A stretch of 33,641 nt of DNA from a virus. The notes under the pieces were generated by a model, which made no database searches, was not told the DNA's origin, and saw only the letters and a program-made list of their open reading frames with translations. The translations under genes were made by a program, and so were the position numbers. The stretch lies in UHGV virus genome UHGV-0275541. The stretch is one strand, 5' to 3'. This document shows, piece after piece, positions 1,906 through 25,191 of this stretch; the first letter of the stretch is position 1, and every line of letters begins with the position of its first letter.

Positions 1906-2952
1906 ATGGCTAATACTGTAAAAATATCCAGTTGTGAGTTAATCAACGCTGATTGCCTGGAATTTATCCAGACCTTACCGGAAAACTCTGTCGACCTGAT
2001 AGTCACAGACCCGCCATACTTTAAAGTGAAGCCCGAGGGCTGGGATAACCAGTGGAAGGGCGACGATGATTACCTGAAATGGCTGGACCAGTGTCTGGCG
2101 CAGTTCTGGCGGGTACTGAAGCCCGCCGGAAGTCTTTACCTGTTCTGTGGTCATCGCCTGGCATCTGATATCGAAATCATGATGCGTGAGCGCTTTAATG
2201 TGCTGAACCACATTATCTGGGCGAAGCCGTCCGGGCGCTGGAACGGGTGCAACAAGGAAAGCCTGCGGACGTATTTTCCGGCAACAGAACGCATTCTGTT
2301 TGCTGAACATTATCAGGGGCCATATCAGCCAAAAAATGACGGCTATGCGGCAAAGGGGCGCGAGCTTAAGCAGCACGTGATGGCTCCGCTGATTTCTTAC
2401 TTTCGTGATGCGCGTGAATCACTGGGGATAACGTCAAAACAGATAGCGGAAGCCACCGGAAAGAAAAACATGGCTTCCCACTGGTTTGGCACCAGTCAGT
2501 GGCAGTTACCAAACAAGGTTGATTACAGAAAACTGCAGGCGTTGTTTGCGCGTGTTGCGGCAGAAAAACATCAACGCGGGGAACTGGAAAAGCCACACCA
2601 CCAGCTGGTCAGCACATACAGTGAACTGAACCGGCGATATGCCAGTCTGCTGGAGGAGTACAAATCCCTGCGGCGTTATTTTTCCGTATCGGCTGCCGTT
2701 CCGTATACGGATGTCTGGACGCACAAGCCTGTGCAGTATTACCCCGGCAAACATCCCTGTGAGAAACCGGCGGATATGTTGCGTCAGATAATTACTGCCA
2801 GCAGTCGTCCGGGAGATTTGGTTGCTGATTTTTTTATGGGGTCGGGGTCAACAGTAAAAGCAGCATTATCGCTGGGAAGGCGTGCAATAGGTGTGGAGCT
2901 GGAAGAAGAGAGATTTAACCAGACTGTAAGCGAAATAAAAGAAAATAGTTAA
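1906..2952 (+). CDS. DNA N6-adenine methyltransferase (beta-class, orphan, no cognate endonuclease in window)
   Basis: 348 aa; catalytic motif IV DPPY (LIVTDPPYF) near N-terminus and AdoMet motif I FxGxG (DFFMGSGST) near C-terminus, the circularly permuted order typical of beta-class amino-MTases. Confidence 0.85.
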   Translation: MANTVKISSCELINADCLEFIQTLPENSVDLIVTDPPYFKVKPEGWDNQWKGDDDYLKWLDQCLAQFWRVLKPAGSLYLFCGHRLASDIEIMMRERFNVLNHIIWAKPSGRWNGCNKESLRTYFPATERILFAEHYQGPYQPKNDGYAAKGRELKQHVMAPLISYFRDARESLGITSKQIAEATGKKNMASHWFGTSQWQLPNKVDYRKLQALFARVAAEKHQRGELEKPHHQLVSTYSELNRRYASLLEEYKSLRRYFSVSAAVPYTDVWTHKPVQYYPGKHPCEKPADMLRQIITASSRPGDLVADFFMGSGSTVKAALSLGRRAIGVELEEERFNQTVSEIKENS

Positions 2953-3133
2953 ATATGTGTGTGATTATTTGTAATCAATCACGAGTAATAGAAATTTACA
3001 CATATATTTACTAATATTGACACTATGTTTATTGAAATAGTGTTTGCCCTCATTAATATCAATAATCGGTTCCGAGGAGATGACAGGGAAATAATGCATA
3101 TATCGGTTGTTTTATTTTTTCCGAGGAACCGTT

Positions 3134-3206
3134 GCCGATTTAACTTAGCAGACAAAGCAACTGACTTGTAATCACCGGGTCGCCAGTTCGATTCCGGTAA
3201 TCGGCA
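3134..3206 (+). tRNA. degenerate tRNA-like element (anticodon loop CTTGTAA suggests UGU/Thr); possibly a pseudo-tRNA
   Basis: 7-bp acceptor helix GCCGATT/AATCGGC, U8-A9, T-loop TTCGATT, but 2 mismatches in anticodon stem, 1 in T-stem, and D-loop lacks GG. Hand fold only. Confidence 0.4.
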
Positions 3207-15164: not shown

Positions 15165-16095
15165 GGAATTAGCCGAACAGCACAGTTCGCAGCTCTCGTC
15201 CGTTCTTAAATCCGCAGTTGAAACCATCTCGTCAGACCAGGAAATCACGTTCAGGCTCTATGTCCGGCAGGTTCTGCCGCTGGATGGCTTTGTCTATTGG
15301 GTTGATGCGGAAATCATCAGTTGCGATGAACTGTGTCGCCTGAATATTGAGTCACCAACTCGTCTGAAAATCAAAGGCAGCCTGCATCGTCAGGTTATTG
15401 CGATTCAGGACGAGTCTGTCTCGAAGGATGTGAACAACATTATTTTCACGCCTGTTCAGCAGGTTGATGATTTTAATGTGGAAAATCCCGATGCGATCTA
15501 TCTCGGTGAGTACGGAGGCGTCCAGTTCGCTTTTTCACGAATGGAGAGCCGTTATCAGCAGTCGGGTATTTTTCATTATCGCGGCATGGCGATTTTGCCA
15601 ACCATGCGTTCCCAGATTATCGACTGCGAGGAGGATATCAGCGACGAGCAGATCATCTCCAACAGCATCCCGATCTGGCTGCAAATGAAAGATGCCGCGA
15701 CCGTGTATCCGTCTTACCTGGTACCGCAGAACCTTCGCCCACCGTATATCGCGGTGGATGTTCGCAACAGTATTCCATTGCAGGTGGCTCCCGTTGTTTT
15801 CGGCGGTGAGCGGTTTCAGCTCGTCCAGGATTCGGTTCGCCTGACGCTTTACGGATTCAGCAACAAAATGGCGCTGGATCTTGTCGACTCGGTGGTGAAC
15901 AGGGCGCTGGAGGAGGAAAAGTTTGGTGTAACCAATATTCCGGTGGTTCAGGACGCAAAGTCGGGACAGGTTGAAATCAACGCTCTGGCGAAGAAAAAGA
16001 TTGTCGATTTTGACGTGAATTACTACCAGAGCACCGCCCGGAAAATATCCCGGCAGTTGATTGAAAAAGTTATTTGTAAATATGAGGTTAAATAA
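15151..16095 (+). CDS. phage hypothetical protein (head-tail joining/tail completion region)
   Basis: 314 aa; ATG 15151; stop TAA overlaps next ATG at 16095. Confidence 0.55.
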   Translation: MPSLEELAEQHSSQLSSVLKSAVETISSDQEITFRLYVRQVLPLDGFVYWVDAEIISCDELCRLNIESPTRLKIKGSLHRQVIAIQDESVSKDVNNIIFTPVQQVDDFNVENPDAIYLGEYGGVQFAFSRMESRYQQSGIFHYRGMAILPTMRSQIIDCEEDISDEQIISNSIPIWLQMKDAATVYPSYLVPQNLRPPYIAVDVRNSIPLQVAPVVFGGERFQLVQDSVRLTLYGFSNKMALDLVDSVVNRALEEEKFGVTNIPVVQDAKSGQVEINALAKKKIVDFDVNYYQSTARKISRQLIEKVICKYEVK

Positions 16096-17432
16096 TGGGG
16101 TTTAATATCGTCACGGTGAATGTGTCCCAGACCATCGGGGCCATTCCCTCGAATTTGCAGCAGATGTCTGCGGTTCTCTCGTTTGGCTCCACGACTCATG
16201 AGCCGGGAAAGCCTGTATTACTCACCCGTAATCAGGATATTAACGATCTGGTAAGAAATCCGATTGCTGCGTTGTCGGCGGCTGCCGCAGGAAAATCTGC
16301 GGCAAACGTCACCGTTACGATGACGCTTCCGGAAGGGAGCAACATCCGACGCGAAAACAGTTCTGAGGTGAAAATTGTTGTTTCCGGGTGTTCGCCCGAC
16401 GCGTGGAATGGCGAATATACTGCTACCGTCACGGATGAAAAAACACTGACCTGGACGATTGCTGATTCTCAGCTTTCCGGTTCGCCAGTGACACTGGGGC
16501 AGTTTTCCATTGTTGGCAGTGAAAATCTGGTGACGGCAGTAAACACGTTTTTTGCCCAGGGAAATTCAGTGGGGATTTACCTGCTGGAGCTGGGAGTACA
16601 GAAAGGCGGAGTCAGTAAGGAAATCGCTGCACTGAAAGCTTATATGGAAGATCCGCTCCTGCGTTTTTATGCGTATCTGGTGCCGCAGCCGTGGGATGGT
16701 GACGCAGAGTTTATCAGTCTGGCAAAACTCCACACCGCAAACGAAGCGATGCAGTATTTTTTCGTGCTGACGAAAACGCCGGACGACACGAATTACGTTT
16801 CGCCTTATGCCGGTATTAAGTCGGTTATTGCAACGGCGGATGATACGTACCCGGCGACAAACGCGGCAGCAGCCGTAATGTGGAACTATGTTTCCGCATC
16901 ACCTTCAGAAATCAACAAGGTGCCGCCGATGGCATTTCGCTATCTACAGGCGGTAAACGCCCACAAGGGCAAAAATTCAATTCTGGTCACGATGACAAAG
17001 CAGAATATTAACTACGTCGACACGGGGGCTGAGGGGGGAATTTCCAACACGATTCTGGTGAAAGGCGTTACCAGTGACGGTAACGATATGACGTACTGGT
17101 ATTCCGTGGACTGGGTGCAGATTAACGTCGATATGCAGCTCGCCAACACGGTGATCAACGGTAGCAATAACCCAATTAACCCGCTTTACTACAACCAGGA
17201 CGGGATCGACCGTCTACAGCAGGTCGCACAGGCGGTGTTCAATACGGGCGTATCTTACGGCCTGGTCAACGGTCAGCCTGTCGTCGATGCAGTGCCTTTC
17301 CGCCAGTATATCAACACTAATCCGAATGATTACGGTATCGGGCGTTATGCGGGCCTTTCGGCCTCCTATACGCCGATGCGCGGATTTGTCGAAATCATTT
17401 TTAACATCAATGTGACAATGCAGCTTTCGTGA
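16095..17432 (+). CDS. putative tail sheath protein
   Basis: 445 aa, first large gene of the tail module, followed by a ~147-aa tube-sized gene, chaperone and tape measure; assignment by size and order only. Confidence 0.45.
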   Translation: MGFNIVTVNVSQTIGAIPSNLQQMSAVLSFGSTTHEPGKPVLLTRNQDINDLVRNPIAALSAAAAGKSAANVTVTMTLPEGSNIRRENSSEVKIVVSGCSPDAWNGEYTATVTDEKTLTWTIADSQLSGSPVTLGQFSIVGSENLVTAVNTFFAQGNSVGIYLLELGVQKGGVSKEIAALKAYMEDPLLRFYAYLVPQPWDGDAEFISLAKLHTANEAMQYFFVLTKTPDDTNYVSPYAGIKSVIATADDTYPATNAAAAVMWNYVSASPSEINKVPPMAFRYLQAVNAHKGKNSILVTMTKQNINYVDTGAEGGISNTILVKGVTSDGNDMTYWYSVDWVQINVDMQLANTVINGSNNPINPLYYNQDGIDRLQQVAQAVFNTGVSYGLVNGQPVVDAVPFRQYINTNPNDYGIGRYAGLSASYTPMRGFVEIIFNINVTMQLS

Positions 17433-17443
17433 GGGACTGAACC

Positions 17444-17887
17444 GTGCCTAATCCAATGATCCCCGTTGGCACCCTTAACCGGGTTCGCGCCAGCGTTAAA
17501 TTCACCTCTCATTCCGAACTGAATGTGTCCGCCTCATTTCTGGCAAAAGAAGGCGTCGAATTGTCCTTTCAGGGCAATATCACGGAGTTTTTACCCGCTA
17601 TGACGGGAGCCGTGCAGTCGCCGCAGCCATACATGATTTTACAGGCGCGTGTTCATCTGCTGCGTAGCCAGGCGCTGGGAAAACAATTCAAGGCGCAATG
17701 GGAAAAAAACGCCACGATCGGCGACGCAAAAGTGTATAGCGACAGCACGGTATTCGGTGACTTCGATATCTATAACACGGCGATCACCAACGTGCAGGAT
17801 ATGACCTTCGCCGGGGGCGAGCCGGGTGTGGCCATCACCATTACCGGTACGTATTACATCAACTCTGAAATGTGGGATCTGGTATGA
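17444..17887 (+). CDS. putative tail tube protein
   Basis: 147 aa from GTG 17444 (GAGGGA RBS 7 nt upstream); position between sheath-sized gene and chaperone. Confidence 0.45.
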   Translation: MPNPMIPVGTLNRVRASVKFTSHSELNVSASFLAKEGVELSFQGNITEFLPAMTGAVQSPQPYMILQARVHLLRSQALGKQFKAQWEKNATIGDAKVYSDSTVFGDFDIYNTAITNVQDMTFAGGEPGVAITITGTYYINSEMWDLV

Positions 17888-18501
17888 AAATCTCCCGAAA
17901 TCTGAATCTGATTATTCCTGTCCAGACAGAAAAGGATAGTGGCTGGATCCATGCCACGCCGATCAGCAAAGAGGTGTTTAAAGAGCATTTCTTCATTCTG
18001 AGTAAAACTTTTTCTGCCATTTTCTCCGAAGGTCTTGGCGTCGTTGCCGGGCCGCGCGTTGCTTTTCTGATGCTGGAGCGGATCTCGCGTGATTCCGGTA
18101 TCTGGGACGATGATAAGGGAGTTCGTAATACGCTGGTGAACGAAATAATTCGCCTGGCAAACCTTGTTTATCCGGTGGAGGGCAAAGGTTACGACACAAT
18201 CCCTCTTGATATGGCGCTGGAGCGTGAAATCGTTGAGCTGGATGATGTTGCGGGTGAACTCGTTTTTTTTACATGCGTCTCGTCAATAAATTCGCCGGAG
18301 CAGGCGAAAGGGACTCTGGATGTGGTCAATGGAATCTGGAGCACTCAATACTCATCCTTGAATCTTACGGACTGGATTGCTTCCTTGCCGACATTGAAGT
18401 CTGCCGCCAGTTCTGGCGCGACGGTGAACACATCATCAGCGACATCCTCGACTACTCAGCCGGAGCCGGATTCAGAGACATCTGTGCAGATTCCGGTTTG
18501 A
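17884..18501 (+). CDS. putative tail assembly chaperone (zero-frame product)
   Basis: 205 aa from ATG 17884 overlapping the previous stop; contains the T8 slippery run at codons about 127-129; directly upstream of the tape measure gene. Confidence 0.5.
   Translation: MKISRNLNLIIPVQTEKDSGWIHATPISKEVFKEHFFILSKTFSAIFSEGLGVVAGPRVAFLMLERISRDSGIWDDDKGVRNTLVNEIIRLANLVYPVEGKGYDTIPLDMALEREIVELDDVAGELVFFTCVSSINSPEQAKGTLDVVNGIWSTQYSSLNLTDWIASLPTLKSAASSGATVNTSSATSSTTQPEPDSETSVQIPV
18264..18270 (+). other. candidate -1 programmed ribosomal frameshift site T_TTT_TTT; predicted fusion product 17884..18270 joined to 18270..18566
   Basis: Heptamer in X_XXY_YYZ register of the chaperone frame; the -1 frame opens at 18258 (after TGA 18255-18257) and runs to TGA 18564-18566, overlapping the tape measure ATG at 18566. 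Confidence 0.55.
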
Positions 18502-18565
18502 ATGTAAAAACAGCAGCTCAGTTTCGTGAGCTGCTCAAACTCAAAAATCCCGCAGGAGTATTGTG

Positions 18566-20626
18566 ATGGCTGGTAACCAGATGCCAGTTCTGACGCTGGA
18601 CGTTAATGAAGAACACCTCAAGCGGCTTGAGGCGATATTTGAAAAGTATCGCAACGGACTGATGATTGGCCCTGCCGGGACACCGCTTAAAATACCTTCA
18701 AATACAGGTCAGGGAGGTGGCGCCCGGCAGATAACCACAGGCGGAGAAGCCAATCAGGCTCCCAGGAAACCATCTTCACCTGCGCCCACCGATGGACGTT
18801 TAAGGGATGAAAAAGGGCGCTTTGTCGGTAGCGGAAAAACACCTGATTCGCTGGTGAGCAACTATAAAGGTCGCGGCGAAACGATGTTTGATAAGTATCT
18901 CAGTAGTCTGGGTAAAAACGCCAAACAGACGCTGAAAACTTACAAGCAGATCAATTCTACGCTACGGACGACCACTTCGAGATTAAACAACCTGTTTAAA
19001 ACCACCGTATCGTGGGGGACAAAACTTGCGGTTATGGGCGTTGCCGGGCCGTTCGGCTTTGGCATGATGGCTCGTAATGTTGTAGAGAAACAGAAAAATG
19101 CTGATGAATTGCAGGCAACGCCAGGAGAGTTAAAGGCGGCAGAAAGCACTTATTCGCCTTATTTTTCCGGTGTTGGTAATTTGCTCAATACACTGGCAGC
19201 CGCGCAAAATGACACTCAGCATCCTGCCTACAACGGGCTAATTGGATTAGGGATAAATCCTAAAAAAGGGGCAGCAGAAAATCTTCCTGTATTGTTAGAA
19301 AGAGTTGCTGCTCTTGCAAAGGAGTATGAGGGAACCGGACTTACTCAGAGCATGCTCAGGGGGCGTGGCCTTGGATGGGTAAATTTTGGTATTGCTAACC
19401 AGTTAGTCAAATATCAGGACAAAATACCTGAACTCAACAAAGAGTTTTTATCGCGAGCTTCTCAGAATGACTCGTTGCTCACCTCTGGACATACAAGCCA
19501 GTATCAGAATCTTACCAGCAACTTAGAAAATAACTGGGATCAACTTACCAGCGGATTTCAGGGGGCAATGTCGGGTAACTCTGTACAGCTAATTAGAATA
19601 TCTAATGGTGTAAAGAATGCTGGTCTAAATTTCCTTAATGGTGAGAACTTTAAAAGAATTTTGACTGATGTTGAAACAGGTCTGGATAAACTTGGTAAGT
19701 ATGTAAATGGCCCGGATTTTAATAACGACCTGAATAATTTTGCCGAAAATGTTGCAAAGGTTGTTAAGGCACTTAGCGGGTTTGTTGGTTTTGCGGTTGA
19801 ACATCCCTGGCTTTTTGGGGCCGCAGTACTTGCTGGACCATCGAGAGTTGGTGCTGTGGCCGCCACAACGACCGGAGTTGCCGCCCGTGTTGTTGGTGGA
19901 AGTCTTCTTGGGGCTACAGCCGGAACAGTAGCTGGATTGGCTATTCCTACAAATGACACACCTACCACCAGTGAGGAAATGAAAGGGCTGGAGGGGCGTT
20001 TCAACTTTGATTATTTTAACGAAGTGCAGGAGTGGCAAAAAAACAATCCGGGTAAGGTCTGGCCTGGAGGATTGCAGGGATTTTCAAATCAAGTAAACAG
20101 ATCTGCATATTTATCCAGAGGGATCAGGAATAACAATCCCGGAAATCTTAATTTCGCAGGACAAAAAGGGGCTACCCTGGAATCGGGGCCAAATGCCCGT
20201 TTTGCCAGCTTCCCGACGATGCTGGAAGGCATTGCTGCCTTAGATCGGCAGGTAATGCTATACCTGAAACGCGGCAAAAATACGATTGATCAGATTATTG
20301 ATATTTATGCCCCTTCATCTGATGGAAATAACACATCGTCCTATAAAAGCTATCTCTCTCAGTACACCGGATTAGGTGTTAAGGAGAAAATCGATGGTTC
20401 TAATTTTGAGATAATGAGAAAGCTAATTCAGGGCATTATTAACCATGAAAATGGGGACGCCGCTCGTGCAGTAAGTGGCGATGATGTGATGCGGGCGCTG
20501 GCAATGAACCGGGGGAACGTATATTCACCAAATAATACTTCTCAGGTAATCAGGCTCGACGTTCAACAAAAACCAGGTTCCGACATACTGGCACAACTCG
20601 CCGGAATGCAACAAATATCGGGGTAA
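18566..20626 (+). CDS. putative tail tape measure protein with an AT-rich central/C-terminal portion
   Basis: 686 aa from ATG 18566 (GCAGGAG RBS); Gly/Ala-rich hydrophobic segment (FVGFAVEHPWLFGAAVLAGPSRVGAVAATTTGVAARVVGG...) typical of tape measure proteins; position after chaperone. Confidence 0.6.
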   Translation: MAGNQMPVLTLDVNEEHLKRLEAIFEKYRNGLMIGPAGTPLKIPSNTGQGGGARQITTGGEANQAPRKPSSPAPTDGRLRDEKGRFVGSGKTPDSLVSNYKGRGETMFDKYLSSLGKNAKQTLKTYKQINSTLRTTTSRLNNLFKTTVSWGTKLAVMGVAGPFGFGMMARNVVEKQKNADELQATPGELKAAESTYSPYFSGVGNLLNTLAAAQNDTQHPAYNGLIGLGINPKKGAAENLPVLLERVAALAKEYEGTGLTQSMLRGRGLGWVNFGIANQLVKYQDKIPELNKEFLSRASQNDSLLTSGHTSQYQNLTSNLENNWDQLTSGFQGAMSGNSVQLIRISNGVKNAGLNFLNGENFKRILTDVETGLDKLGKYVNGPDFNNDLNNFAENVAKVVKALSGFVGFAVEHPWLFGAAVLAGPSRVGAVAATTTGVAARVVGGSLLGATAGTVAGLAIPTNDTPTTSEEMKGLEGRFNFDYFNEVQEWQKNNPGKVWPGGLQGFSNQVNRSAYLSRGIRNNNPGNLNFAGQKGATLESGPNARFASFPTMLEGIAALDRQVMLYLKRGKNTIDQIIDIYAPSSDGNNTSSYKSYLSQYTGLGVKEKIDGSNFEIMRKLIQGIINHENGDAARAVSGDDVMRALAMNRGNVYSPNNTSQVIRLDVQQKPGSDILAQLAGMQQISG

Positions 20627-24003: not shown

Positions 24004-24030
24004 CATATTGTTACCATGGAGGAGACAAGT

Positions 24031-25191
24031 ATGGAAAATTTTGCAAATAAGTTAAAAATACACACAGAGCATGTTGCAAAAATGGGGGTGTTTTGTACAA
24101 CTGAAGAAACGACAAAACAAGCACTCATTATGCCATTACTAGATATTCTTGGTTTTACTCCGTATGATCCAAGAAAAGTCAAAGCTGAGTATAGTGCTGA
24201 CTTCCCCGGGGTTAAGGCTAATGAACGGGTTGATTACGCTTTATTTTGTCATGATGTTCCTGTGATGTTCATTGAGGCGAAATCGTTTTCAGAACAAATT
24301 GATAATCACTGCCCACAGCTATCAAGATATTTTAATTCAACACCGGAAGTTACTATATCAGCCATTACAAATGGTGTTGAATGGCGTTTTTTTACGGATT
24401 TGAAACAAAAAAACATAATGGATTCAACGCCGTTTTTAAAAATAAGAATGGATTCTCTAACTCACTCCGATATTACACAATTATTTCGTTTTCGTTATGA
24501 TAAATTCAAACCAGAGGCTTTACGGACACTGGCTGAAGAAAGTGTTTATTTGAATTCATTTACTAAAACAATCAGTTCTAGTCTTCGTGAAGTTGATCTG
24601 GAGTTTGTTCGATATGTTGCTAGTCGTTCAAATATTGAGAGACAACTTAATCAGAGATTTCTTGAGTTCGTGACTCCATTAGTTAAACAGGCCGTTGAGC
24701 GCGCTGTTAGCGCAATGGTGGTTTCCGGGCTATCTACACAACCGGTAGAGCAAACTAAAGAAAATGATGCAACGGATACACAAGTTAATAACGCCATTGT
24801 TGATGAAGAAAACCCCAACATAATAACCACAGCCAAAGAATTGGAGCTATTTGAAAGGGTAAAACAAATCATACAAACAGAAGATAATATAGAATATAAA
24901 GATACTGAGTCATATTTTGGTGTACTATTGAATGGTAAAACTAATAGATGGCTGTTAAGATTTTATGATAAAAAATCTTCATTTATAACTTTACCTATTT
25001 CGCTTAGTGAAGTTCAGTTGAATGAAATAAGACGAGCTCGACTTGATACGGATGGTAAAAGGATACATATAACTAATCCGGAAGATATACTTCGCATATC
25101 TGGTTTGATTCTGGATTCATACGAGTATGTTAAAAATGATGATAATTTCCGCCGAGGGTCCAGAGCGAGTAGTTTAGAAGAGGTTGAATAA
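24031..25191 (+). CDS. stand-alone PD-(D/E)xK nuclease-like protein resembling the N-terminal domain of type I restriction HsdR (HsdR-N-like)
   Basis: 386 aa from ATG 24031 (GGAGGAG RBS; alternative ATG 24016); motifs TTKQALIMPLLDILGF and ERVDYALF...VMFIEAKS match the HsdR N-terminal nuclease pattern (ADYVLF...VVEAKR in EcoKI HsdR as I recall it); AT-rich codon usage unlike flanking genes. Confidence 0.6.
   Translation: MENFANKLKIHTEHVAKMGVFCTTEETTKQALIMPLLDILGFTPYDPRKVKAEYSADFPGVKANERVDYALFCHDVPVMFIEAKSFSEQIDNHCPQLSRYFNSTPEVTISAITNGVEWRFFTDLKQKNIMDSTPFLKIRMDSLTHSDITQLFRFRYDKFKPEALRTLAEESVYLNSFTKTISSSLREVDLEFVRYVASRSNIERQLNQRFLEFVTPLVKQAVERAVSAMVVSGLSTQPVEQTKENDATDTQVNNAIVDEENPNIITTAKELELFERVKQIIQTEDNIEYKDTESYFGVLLNGKTNRWLLRFYDKKSSFITLPISLSEVQLNEIRRARLDTDGKRIHITNPEDILRISGLILDSYEYVKNDDNFRRGSRASSLEEVE

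Follow-up and report, generated by a model that had tools for sequence, protein, structure and literature searches.

A Predicted -1 Frameshift at a Conserved T Run in a Candidate Tail Assembly Chaperone Gene of a Myovirus-Type Prophage

UHGV virus genome UHGV-0275541, analysed here over the whole stretch of 33,641 nucleotides (nt; hereafter the window), carries an open reading frame (ORF) at 17884-18501 that is probably the gene for the tail assembly chaperone in a myovirus-type prophage, with a ribosomal -1 shift at the heptamer T_TTT_TTT. The ORF that follows in the -1 frame is, on comparative grounds, almost certainly expressed as a fusion through a shift at this T run; that the shift takes place on the ribosome, which we infer along with its efficiency, is probable. 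In the proposed mechanism most ribosomes would read straight through the run and make a protein of 205 amino acids (aa), and a minority, with tRNA-Phe in both the P and A sites at T_TTT_TTT, would slip back by one base through tandem slippage on U_UUU_UUU. The slipped ribosomes would then read the -1 frame (TAC ATG CGT...) for 98 codons and end at a TGA that overlaps the ATG of the tape measure gene. The outcome would be a 227-aa fusion in which the shared residues 1-129 lead into another C-terminal module, one that is mostly helical. If the gpG/gpGT pair of phage lambda is taken as a model, the shared N-terminal part may bind the tape measure protein while the tube protein may be brought in by the -1 module, the molar ratio being low and fixed.

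The Slip Site and the Two Reading Frames

The 0-frame codons at the site are GTT (18262), TTT (18265), TTT (18268) and ACA (18271), with codon starts equal to 1 modulo 3. Within a run of eight T (18263-18270, + strand), the heptamer T_TTT_TTT (18264-18270, + strand; register checked by hand) is in exact X_XXY_YYZ register, and it is the only in-register heptamer across the whole 205-aa ORF; likewise, the T8 run is the only homopolymer of at least five bases in the overlap of the two frames. The -1 frame is closed by a TGA at 18255-18257 and open from 18258. Read from 18270 it gives TAC ATG CGT... (YMRLVNKFAGAG) and continues for 98 codons to a TGA at 18564-18566, whose final base is the A of the tape measure ATG; this extension (18270-18566, + strand) is the part that would correspond to T of a G/GT pair. 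The 0 frame runs for 76 sense codons past the slip site, to a TGA at 18499-18501. The predicted fusion therefore has 129 + 98 = 227 aa, with ...ELVFF followed by YMRLV... at the junction. Its predicted tryptic peptide is EIVELDDVAGELVFFYMR, in the junction context ...GELVFFYMR, and the peptide predicted to be specific to the 0 frame after ...GELVFF is TCVSSINSPEQAK. The original prediction, made from the window alone, had claimed the register of the heptamer, the opening of the -1 frame after the TGA at 18255-18257, its 98 open codons, the overlap of its stop with the tape measure ATG at 18566 and a junction after ...ELVFF; the reading of the sequence agrees with it on all of these.

A T7 run by itself is unremarkable, since the window holds 18 of them against 15.7 expected; what is unusual is the combination of features. 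In particular, stops occur in the -1 frame of the N-terminal 127 codons of this gene family at a density of 0.084 per codon (10.7 stops per 127 codons), and at that density the chance of 98 open -1 codons is about 2e-4 per sequence.

One further in-register heptamer, A_AAA_AAC in an A7 run, is found in the preceding tube gene (17704-17710), where the -1 frame stops after nine codons. It is not conserved, as relatives carry GAAAAGAAC or GAGAAAAAC at the same place; by these signs it looks incidental, and it served as an internal negative control.

The -1 Frame as Coding Sequence

Relatives of the module were drawn from the GenBank phages Actinobacillus phage vB_Apl-pPE4 and Escherichia phage Rac-SA53, from Escherichia coli chromosomes (92 of 5,426 complete genomes gave relatives), from IMG/VR, metagenomes and GTDB genomes, and from contigs encoding database homologues. 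The conservation set comprises 125 distinct nucleotide versions with 99% to 37% identity over the N-terminal 127 residues. Among 103 unique loci with T8, nearly all have a -1 ORF that is free of stops over about 96-102 codons after the run (median 99), the shorter ones being loci cut by a contig end and one locus (L176) with 76 codons. Without exception the ORF ends at the tape measure start or only a few codons away from it.

The protein encoded in the -1 frame is conserved as well. Homologues were recovered down to 57% identity, and homologous -1 ORFs are present in all clades. The conserved domain begins at about codon 27 (LESYGLD...RQFWRDGEH...), and the motif that is shared across clades reads ...YG.d.F.aDIe..R.fWrdGehv.s.lDy..g.GF......a.efR...; in the alignment of fusion proteins, residues Y162, G163, D170 and R175 are invariant. 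A structural model of the -1 ORF alone, built from a shallow alignment, was poor, with a predicted local distance difference test score (pLDDT) of 52 and helices from residue 23, and was used for secondary structure only.

The periodicity of variation changes along the gene. In 46 enterobacterial sequences, the entropy upstream of the slip site is 1.15-1.44 bits at 0-frame codon position 3 and below 0.45 bits at positions 1 and 2. In the first 10 codons past the slip site there is next to no variation at any of the three positions; a variable linker follows and then a stretch that is constrained in two frames. Synonymous-site variability falls from 1.15-1.44 bits upstream to 0.3-0.6 bits in the overlap, and from about codon 45 the most variable position is position 3 of the -1 frame, not of the 0 frame, even though the 0 frame is still open. 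The same switch to -1-frame periodicity occurs independently in the clades with 37-43% and 46-53% identity, making three clades in total. Judged from these alignments, the -1 ORF is a genuine coding sequence under purifying selection in its own frame. Lack of conservation of this ORF in related phages had been named beforehand as an outcome that would speak against the frameshift, and the ORF turned out to be conserved.

Coding in the -1 frame could also come about without any frameshift, if the ORF were a separate gene that starts at the ATG at 18273 and encodes a 97-aa protein. Indeed, an ATG at -1 codon 2 is present in the window, in 28 of 28 loci with at least 85% identity and in 25 of 27 loci with 60-85% identity; protein databases contain 97-aa entries, and several gene callers as well as PHROG 14324 treat the ORF in this way. 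However, no motif resembling a Shine-Dalgarno (SD) sequence lies 5-16 nt upstream of the ATG at 18273 or of any other candidate -1 start in any clade, and the ATG at codon 2 is missing from the most distant clade (30-45% identity), where neither ATG nor GTG nor TTG precedes the conserved domain in 21 of 23 loci; the ORF and the conservation of its protein nevertheless persist there. A separate gene would also leave unexplained why the -1 frame opens exactly at an invariant heptamer and why TTT TTT is fixed. Independent initiation of the -1 ORF is, from these sequences, unlikely, and a separate gene without frameshift is very improbable as an account of the whole arrangement.

Two side observations concern the 3' end of the -1 ORF. 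In the clade of phage Rac-SA53 (L002-L004), a 1-nt deletion relative to window positions 18560-18568 precedes the tape measure ATG (GTATTG-AATG) and shifts the stop of the -1 frame to a point three codons inside the tape measure gene; the -1 ORF has 101 codons there as against 98, and the coupling to the tape measure start is kept although the exact TGATG overlap is lost. In Klebsiella phage vB_Kpn_Chronis (L183, MN013086.1), the GenBank start of the 'putative lytic transglycosylase' (locus position 3131) lies inside the stretch of the -1 ORF. This annotated tape measure start is probably too far upstream, given that the ATG at locus position 3197 (ATGGTAGCTAAG) matches the relatives and that the -1 ORF ends there.

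The Short Product and the Dual-Coding Overlap

The 205-aa product (17884-18501, + strand) belongs to PHROG 11810, whose function is given as unknown. An exhaustive HMMER search returned 694 homologues, of which the distant ones (32-46% identity, about 185-200 aa) align to residues 1 to about 185. In a 122-sequence alignment F129 is invariant, and F128, W152, S167 and L168 are nearly so. The AlphaFold2 model, computed from the alignment of homologues, has a pLDDT of 90.3, with values above 95 up to residue 170, and shows residues 171-205 as a disordered, Ser/Thr-rich tail; the slip site (residues 127-129) falls within the predicted helix 119-135. According to the alignments and the model, the 0-frame sequence after the slip is a real part of the short product, conserved and folded over residues 130-170. 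Since the 0 frame genuinely codes beyond this point, the shift falls within a helix, and the overlap is coding sequence in either frame. The two predicted products thus share residues 1-129 and then carry alternative C-terminal modules, with about 230 nt coding in both frames (76 codons at 18271-18498, + strand, whose 0-frame reading belongs to the short product and whose -1 reading belongs to the fusion, as judged from codon-position variability). In the entropy profile, the final 30 or so 0-frame codons bear no mark of selection on that frame and look like a by-product of the -1 frame.

These features raise the question of what the shift does to the protein. It is an even call whether the event is best described as a switch in the middle of a domain rather than as an extension, namely as an interruption of a helix at residue 129 that exchanges a conserved C-terminal subdomain of about 40 residues, together with the disordered tail, for a helical module of about 70 residues, with selection acting on both frames across the whole of a large and ancient phage family. 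If such a mid-domain switch is true, only the N-terminal 129 residues would make up the unit that binds the tape measure protein, and the C-terminal modules would act as functional heads that exclude one another. As a twist on this, part or all of the slippage may take place at the level of RNA polymerase on the T8 run.

Conservation of the T Run

A T8 run in the same phase (NTT_TTT_TTT) is present in 117 of the 125 distinct sequences. In the same genes Phe is encoded by TTT in 71% of its codons, and Val/Ile codons end in T in 44%; therefore, amino-acid conservation alone would give the run in about one fifth of independent lineages. The fusion proteins of these loci form 15 clusters at 70% identity. 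Three exceptions keep the heptamer without the run of eight (GCT_TTT_TTT in L160, GTT_TTT_TTC in L083 and TGT_TTT_TTT in Pantoea phage PdC23), and two loci have T6 only. Beyond these, cultured myoviruses at about 30% identity share the layout: Klebsiella phage Chronis, Yersinia phage vB_YenM_21.09 and Shewanella phage QDWS all carry T8 and, after it, a -1 ORF exceeding 100 codons (107-121 where measured) that ends on the tape measure ATG. In all relatives the third frame after the run stops after 5-19 codons.

Run length does vary among assemblies. T7 is found in L010, L012 and L013, and T9 in L097, and each of these variants has a twin with T8 (L084, L119/L073, L014 and L006, respectively); L012, L119 and L073 are otherwise the same over 800 nt, and the other twin pairs are 97.5-100% identical, with the exception of one divergent downstream flank. 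From the sequences, the T7 and T9 variants are either homopolymer miscalls or sporadic variants, or they reflect a genuinely unstable run. This variation could suggest that the frameshift itself is an artefact or a sign of decay, in that the true sequence would have T9, miscalled as T8, and thus one continuous 227-aa ORF, or the gene would be a frameshifted prophage pseudogene. Such an explanation is improbable in the extreme. The T8 sequences were produced by many projects independently of one another, complete E. coli genomes and cultured phages among them, every T7 or T9 variant has its T8 twin with identical or near-identical flanks, and a T9 run would abolish the 0-frame C-terminal region that is common to the 694 homologues and is folded to residue 170. 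The T8 twins and the predominance of T8 also disposed of an earlier idea, which was based on the first distant relatives having T7 and the second ORF then lying in the +1 frame, that all three frames are in use or that the run length is polymorphic.

Some loci carry the run in a disturbed setting. With T7, gene callers give a truncated protein of 134-139 aa ending in ...VFLHASRR. In two assemblies (L010 and L011; GCA_030370555.1 and GCA_030370565.1) the tape measure gene is split into short ORFs, and in L010 there is an early TAA after 19 codons; from its sequence, this copy of the module looks like that of a decaying prophage. The Yersinia similis genome CP007230.1 (L008/L009, locus positions about 2616-3017) holds a prophage remnant in which the -1 ORF and the tape measure gene are intact and a deletion joins a holin-like gene to the last 40 or so nt before the T8 run. 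The short upstream ORF of L008 is in fact this holin-like gene (PF16931), joined at the deletion junction, and is uninformative on the 0 frame.

Comparison with Known Tail Assembly Frameshifts

In lambda, the gene for gpG/gpGT directly precedes that of the tape measure protein and follows the major tail gene (PMC5009743, summarising Levin, Hendrix & Casjens 1993; Xu, Hendrix & Duda 2004, 2013, 2014). The arrangement described here resembles it in several ways: a -1 shift on an X_XXY_YYZ heptamer, here T_TTT_TTT unlike that of lambda, would give a minor, longer product that shares the N-terminal part, the -1 ORF stops where the tape measure gene starts and lacks its own initiation signals, and the layout is conserved despite sequence divergence. 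The original prediction had seen in this a match to the G/GT-type chaperone frameshift, and the synteny, the conserved heptamer, the selection in the -1 frame and the missing start of the -1 ORF bear the match out. The same reading has to be qualified in three respects, in that the fusion is not a simple extension of a G-like protein, the window's own clade shows no supported stimulator, and ribosome and polymerase are not separable by sequence.

A likeness also exists to phage P2, which has a contractile tail and a chaperone pair, gpE / gpE+E', encoded between the tube and tape measure genes and produced by a -1 shift at a T-rich heptamer. In P2 the proteins are far smaller and slippage occurs near the end of E. 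No relationship to them was detected in sequence; the P2 family would be expected among the Pfam and PHROG matches, and none appeared. A third parallel is offered by bacterial transcriptional slippage cassettes on A/T runs, in which a homopolymer run at the junction of overlapping frames leads to the same protein outcome (PMC5009743, where the efficiency of P2-type frameshifting is also cited). Unlike in those cassettes, the run here has only eight bases, and relatives keep the codon register of the heptamer and not the length of the run.

In every database record examined, the gene is a 'hypothetical protein' without a joined coding sequence, and the papers on related cultured phages make no mention of a frameshift or a chaperone. 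Searches for solved structural relatives in the PDB found none. Matches in BFVD are weak (E 0.03-0.8, template modelling score 0.3-0.46) and show an enrichment in proteins that carry the annotation tail assembly chaperone, as several of them do, or pre-tape-measure frameshift protein. What emerges is an unannotated family of the known G/GT kind, whose peculiarity lies in the early, mid-domain shift and the long dual-coding overlap.

Mechanism of the Slippage

Several observations weigh against a tail assembly chaperone with a ribosomal shift. Neither lambda G or T nor the Pfam chaperone families have detectable sequence similarity to the proteins, a Pfam/NCBIfam search with the short product, the -1 part and 28 fusion sequences gave no match, and PHROG matches are limited to 11810 and 14324, both of unknown function. 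The lambda shift has been described near the 3' end of g (PMC5009743), unlike the one proposed here, which falls on codon 129 of 205, within a helix of the model and 76 sense codons before the stop. Helix 119-135 belongs to a confidently folded domain, and the fusion would lose about 40 folded residues, unlike lambda gpGT. In the window, the stretch downstream of the slip (18271-18360) has no significant structure by RNAfold (z = 0.44), the RNAalifold consensus of 12 enterobacterial sequences reaches -1.6 kcal/mol with one weak stem of 7 bp (18276-18283 with 18300-18306), and the mean z downstream of the slip in 28 close relatives is +0.6. U_UUU_UUU is, moreover, a much weaker shift site than A_AAA_AAG in E. 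coli (PMC5009743). A weak site of this kind does fit the low ratio that is expected of a G/GT pair.

A downstream stimulator had been suggested as a check of the frameshift. For the window's own clade the search came out negative, and a stimulatory RNA structure is not supported there by the sequences; in distant clades it turned up hairpins of 10-12 bp that start 6 nt after the heptamer, with mean z of -1.1 to -1.3. In one distant subclade, 80.6% of the cells of the hairpin alignment are paired as against 18-53% in slid controls. The covariation score of the hairpin was reached by one of 500 shuffles, and one pair occurs as GC, AU, UA and GU, at positions that are also constrained by coding. 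The metagenome clade with 46-53% identity (L133-L149) has a 12-bp hairpin, GTRTCYATGATR ... YATYATGGAYAC (alignment A9, columns 22-33 and 57-68), with one clear covarying pair, and the clade with 37-43% identity has a different hairpin of 10 bp, ATCTCCAAGG ... CTTGGAGAT, at the same 6-nt spacing; neither of the two is present in the window's own clade. An upstream SD-like stimulator, GGGTG, located 7 nt before the site, was considered and rejected, as it merely encodes Gly-Glu and is not kept in distant clades.

The fusion of 227 aa would equally be obtained if RNA polymerase added an extra U on the T8 run, giving U9 messenger RNAs, either alone or together with ribosomal slippage. Slippage during transcription is well documented as a source of products of this kind (PMC5009743), and it would fit a homopolymer run of eight that is kept as T8 in 117 of 125 sequences although the heptamer needs only seven, a point that also counts against a purely ribosomal shift; the eighth T is, however, accounted for by the Val/Ile codon GTT/ATT. 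That no ribosomal stimulator is detectable in the window's clade points the same way, as do the T7 and T9 versions in public assemblies: their flanks are otherwise identical, and the run is therefore slippage-prone either for polymerases or for sequencing. On the other side, efficient transcriptional slippage in bacteria usually needs runs of at least nine. The relatives that lose run length keep an in-register heptamer (GCT_TTT_TTT, TGT_TTT_TTT, GTT_TTT_TTC), which fits re-pairing of tRNAs better than a dependence on run length and is a mild argument for the ribosome. Furthermore, the hairpin of the distant clades, 6 nt after the heptamer, has the classical spacing of a ribosomal stimulator. 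Slippage by RNA polymerase as the source of the fusion is thus rather unlikely in our estimate, and a shift on the ribosome is what these features are mostly consistent with.

Significance for Annotation and Recoding

The assignment would give a function and a recoding event to PHROG 11810 and PHROG 14324, both listed with 'unknown function'. Annotation pipelines have missed the predicted fusion product in all records examined, including those of complete E. coli genomes and of cultured Klebsiella, Yersinia, Pantoea and Shewanella phages. As a natural recoding test case the site combines an invariant U_UUU_UUU, no obvious stimulator in the enterobacterial clade although distant clades have a hairpin, and 180-230 nt of overlap that codes twice. 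It also suggests that a shared 'G' module need not be nearly as long as the short product. How tail assembly frameshifting is understood in general is unchanged, and a frameshift at this place would be expected by a specialist; what makes the finding useful, unsurprising as it is, are the breadth and strictness of the conservation, the coding in two frames and the missing annotation.

Genome Context

The DNA around the chaperone candidate is, by its gene content, the late operon of a myovirus-type prophage, which also includes genes for terminase, for the portal and the major head protein, and for the baseplate hub and tail fibres. Upstream, on the + strand, lies the tail sheath gene (16095-17432; PHROG 205 'tail sheath', E 1.9e-53), followed by a gene for a 147-aa protein (17444-17887, + strand; PHROG 6566, unknown function) that is assigned to the tail tube by its position after the sheath gene. 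Its stop and the ATG of the chaperone candidate (17884) overlap as ATGA. Downstream, the tape measure gene (18566-20626, + strand) encodes a 687-aa protein with a C-terminal lytic transglycosylase domain, which matches PHROG 7694 over its full length and PHROG 2276 'tail length tape measure protein' with E 1.4e-30; its relatives carry the annotation SLT or lytic transglycosylase, and an AGGAG is found 7 nt upstream of its ATG (18566-18568). The ORF at 17884-18501 thus sits between the tube gene and the tape measure gene, the position in which a G/GT gene is looked for, and the order sheath, tube, chaperone candidate and tape measure is identical in all fetched relatives.

In the baseplate and tail-fibre region of the window, a 391-aa ORF (24016-25191) matches PHROG 4225 'endonuclease' with E 5e-149. 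The label is odd for this position, and the ORF may encode a mislabelled structural protein.

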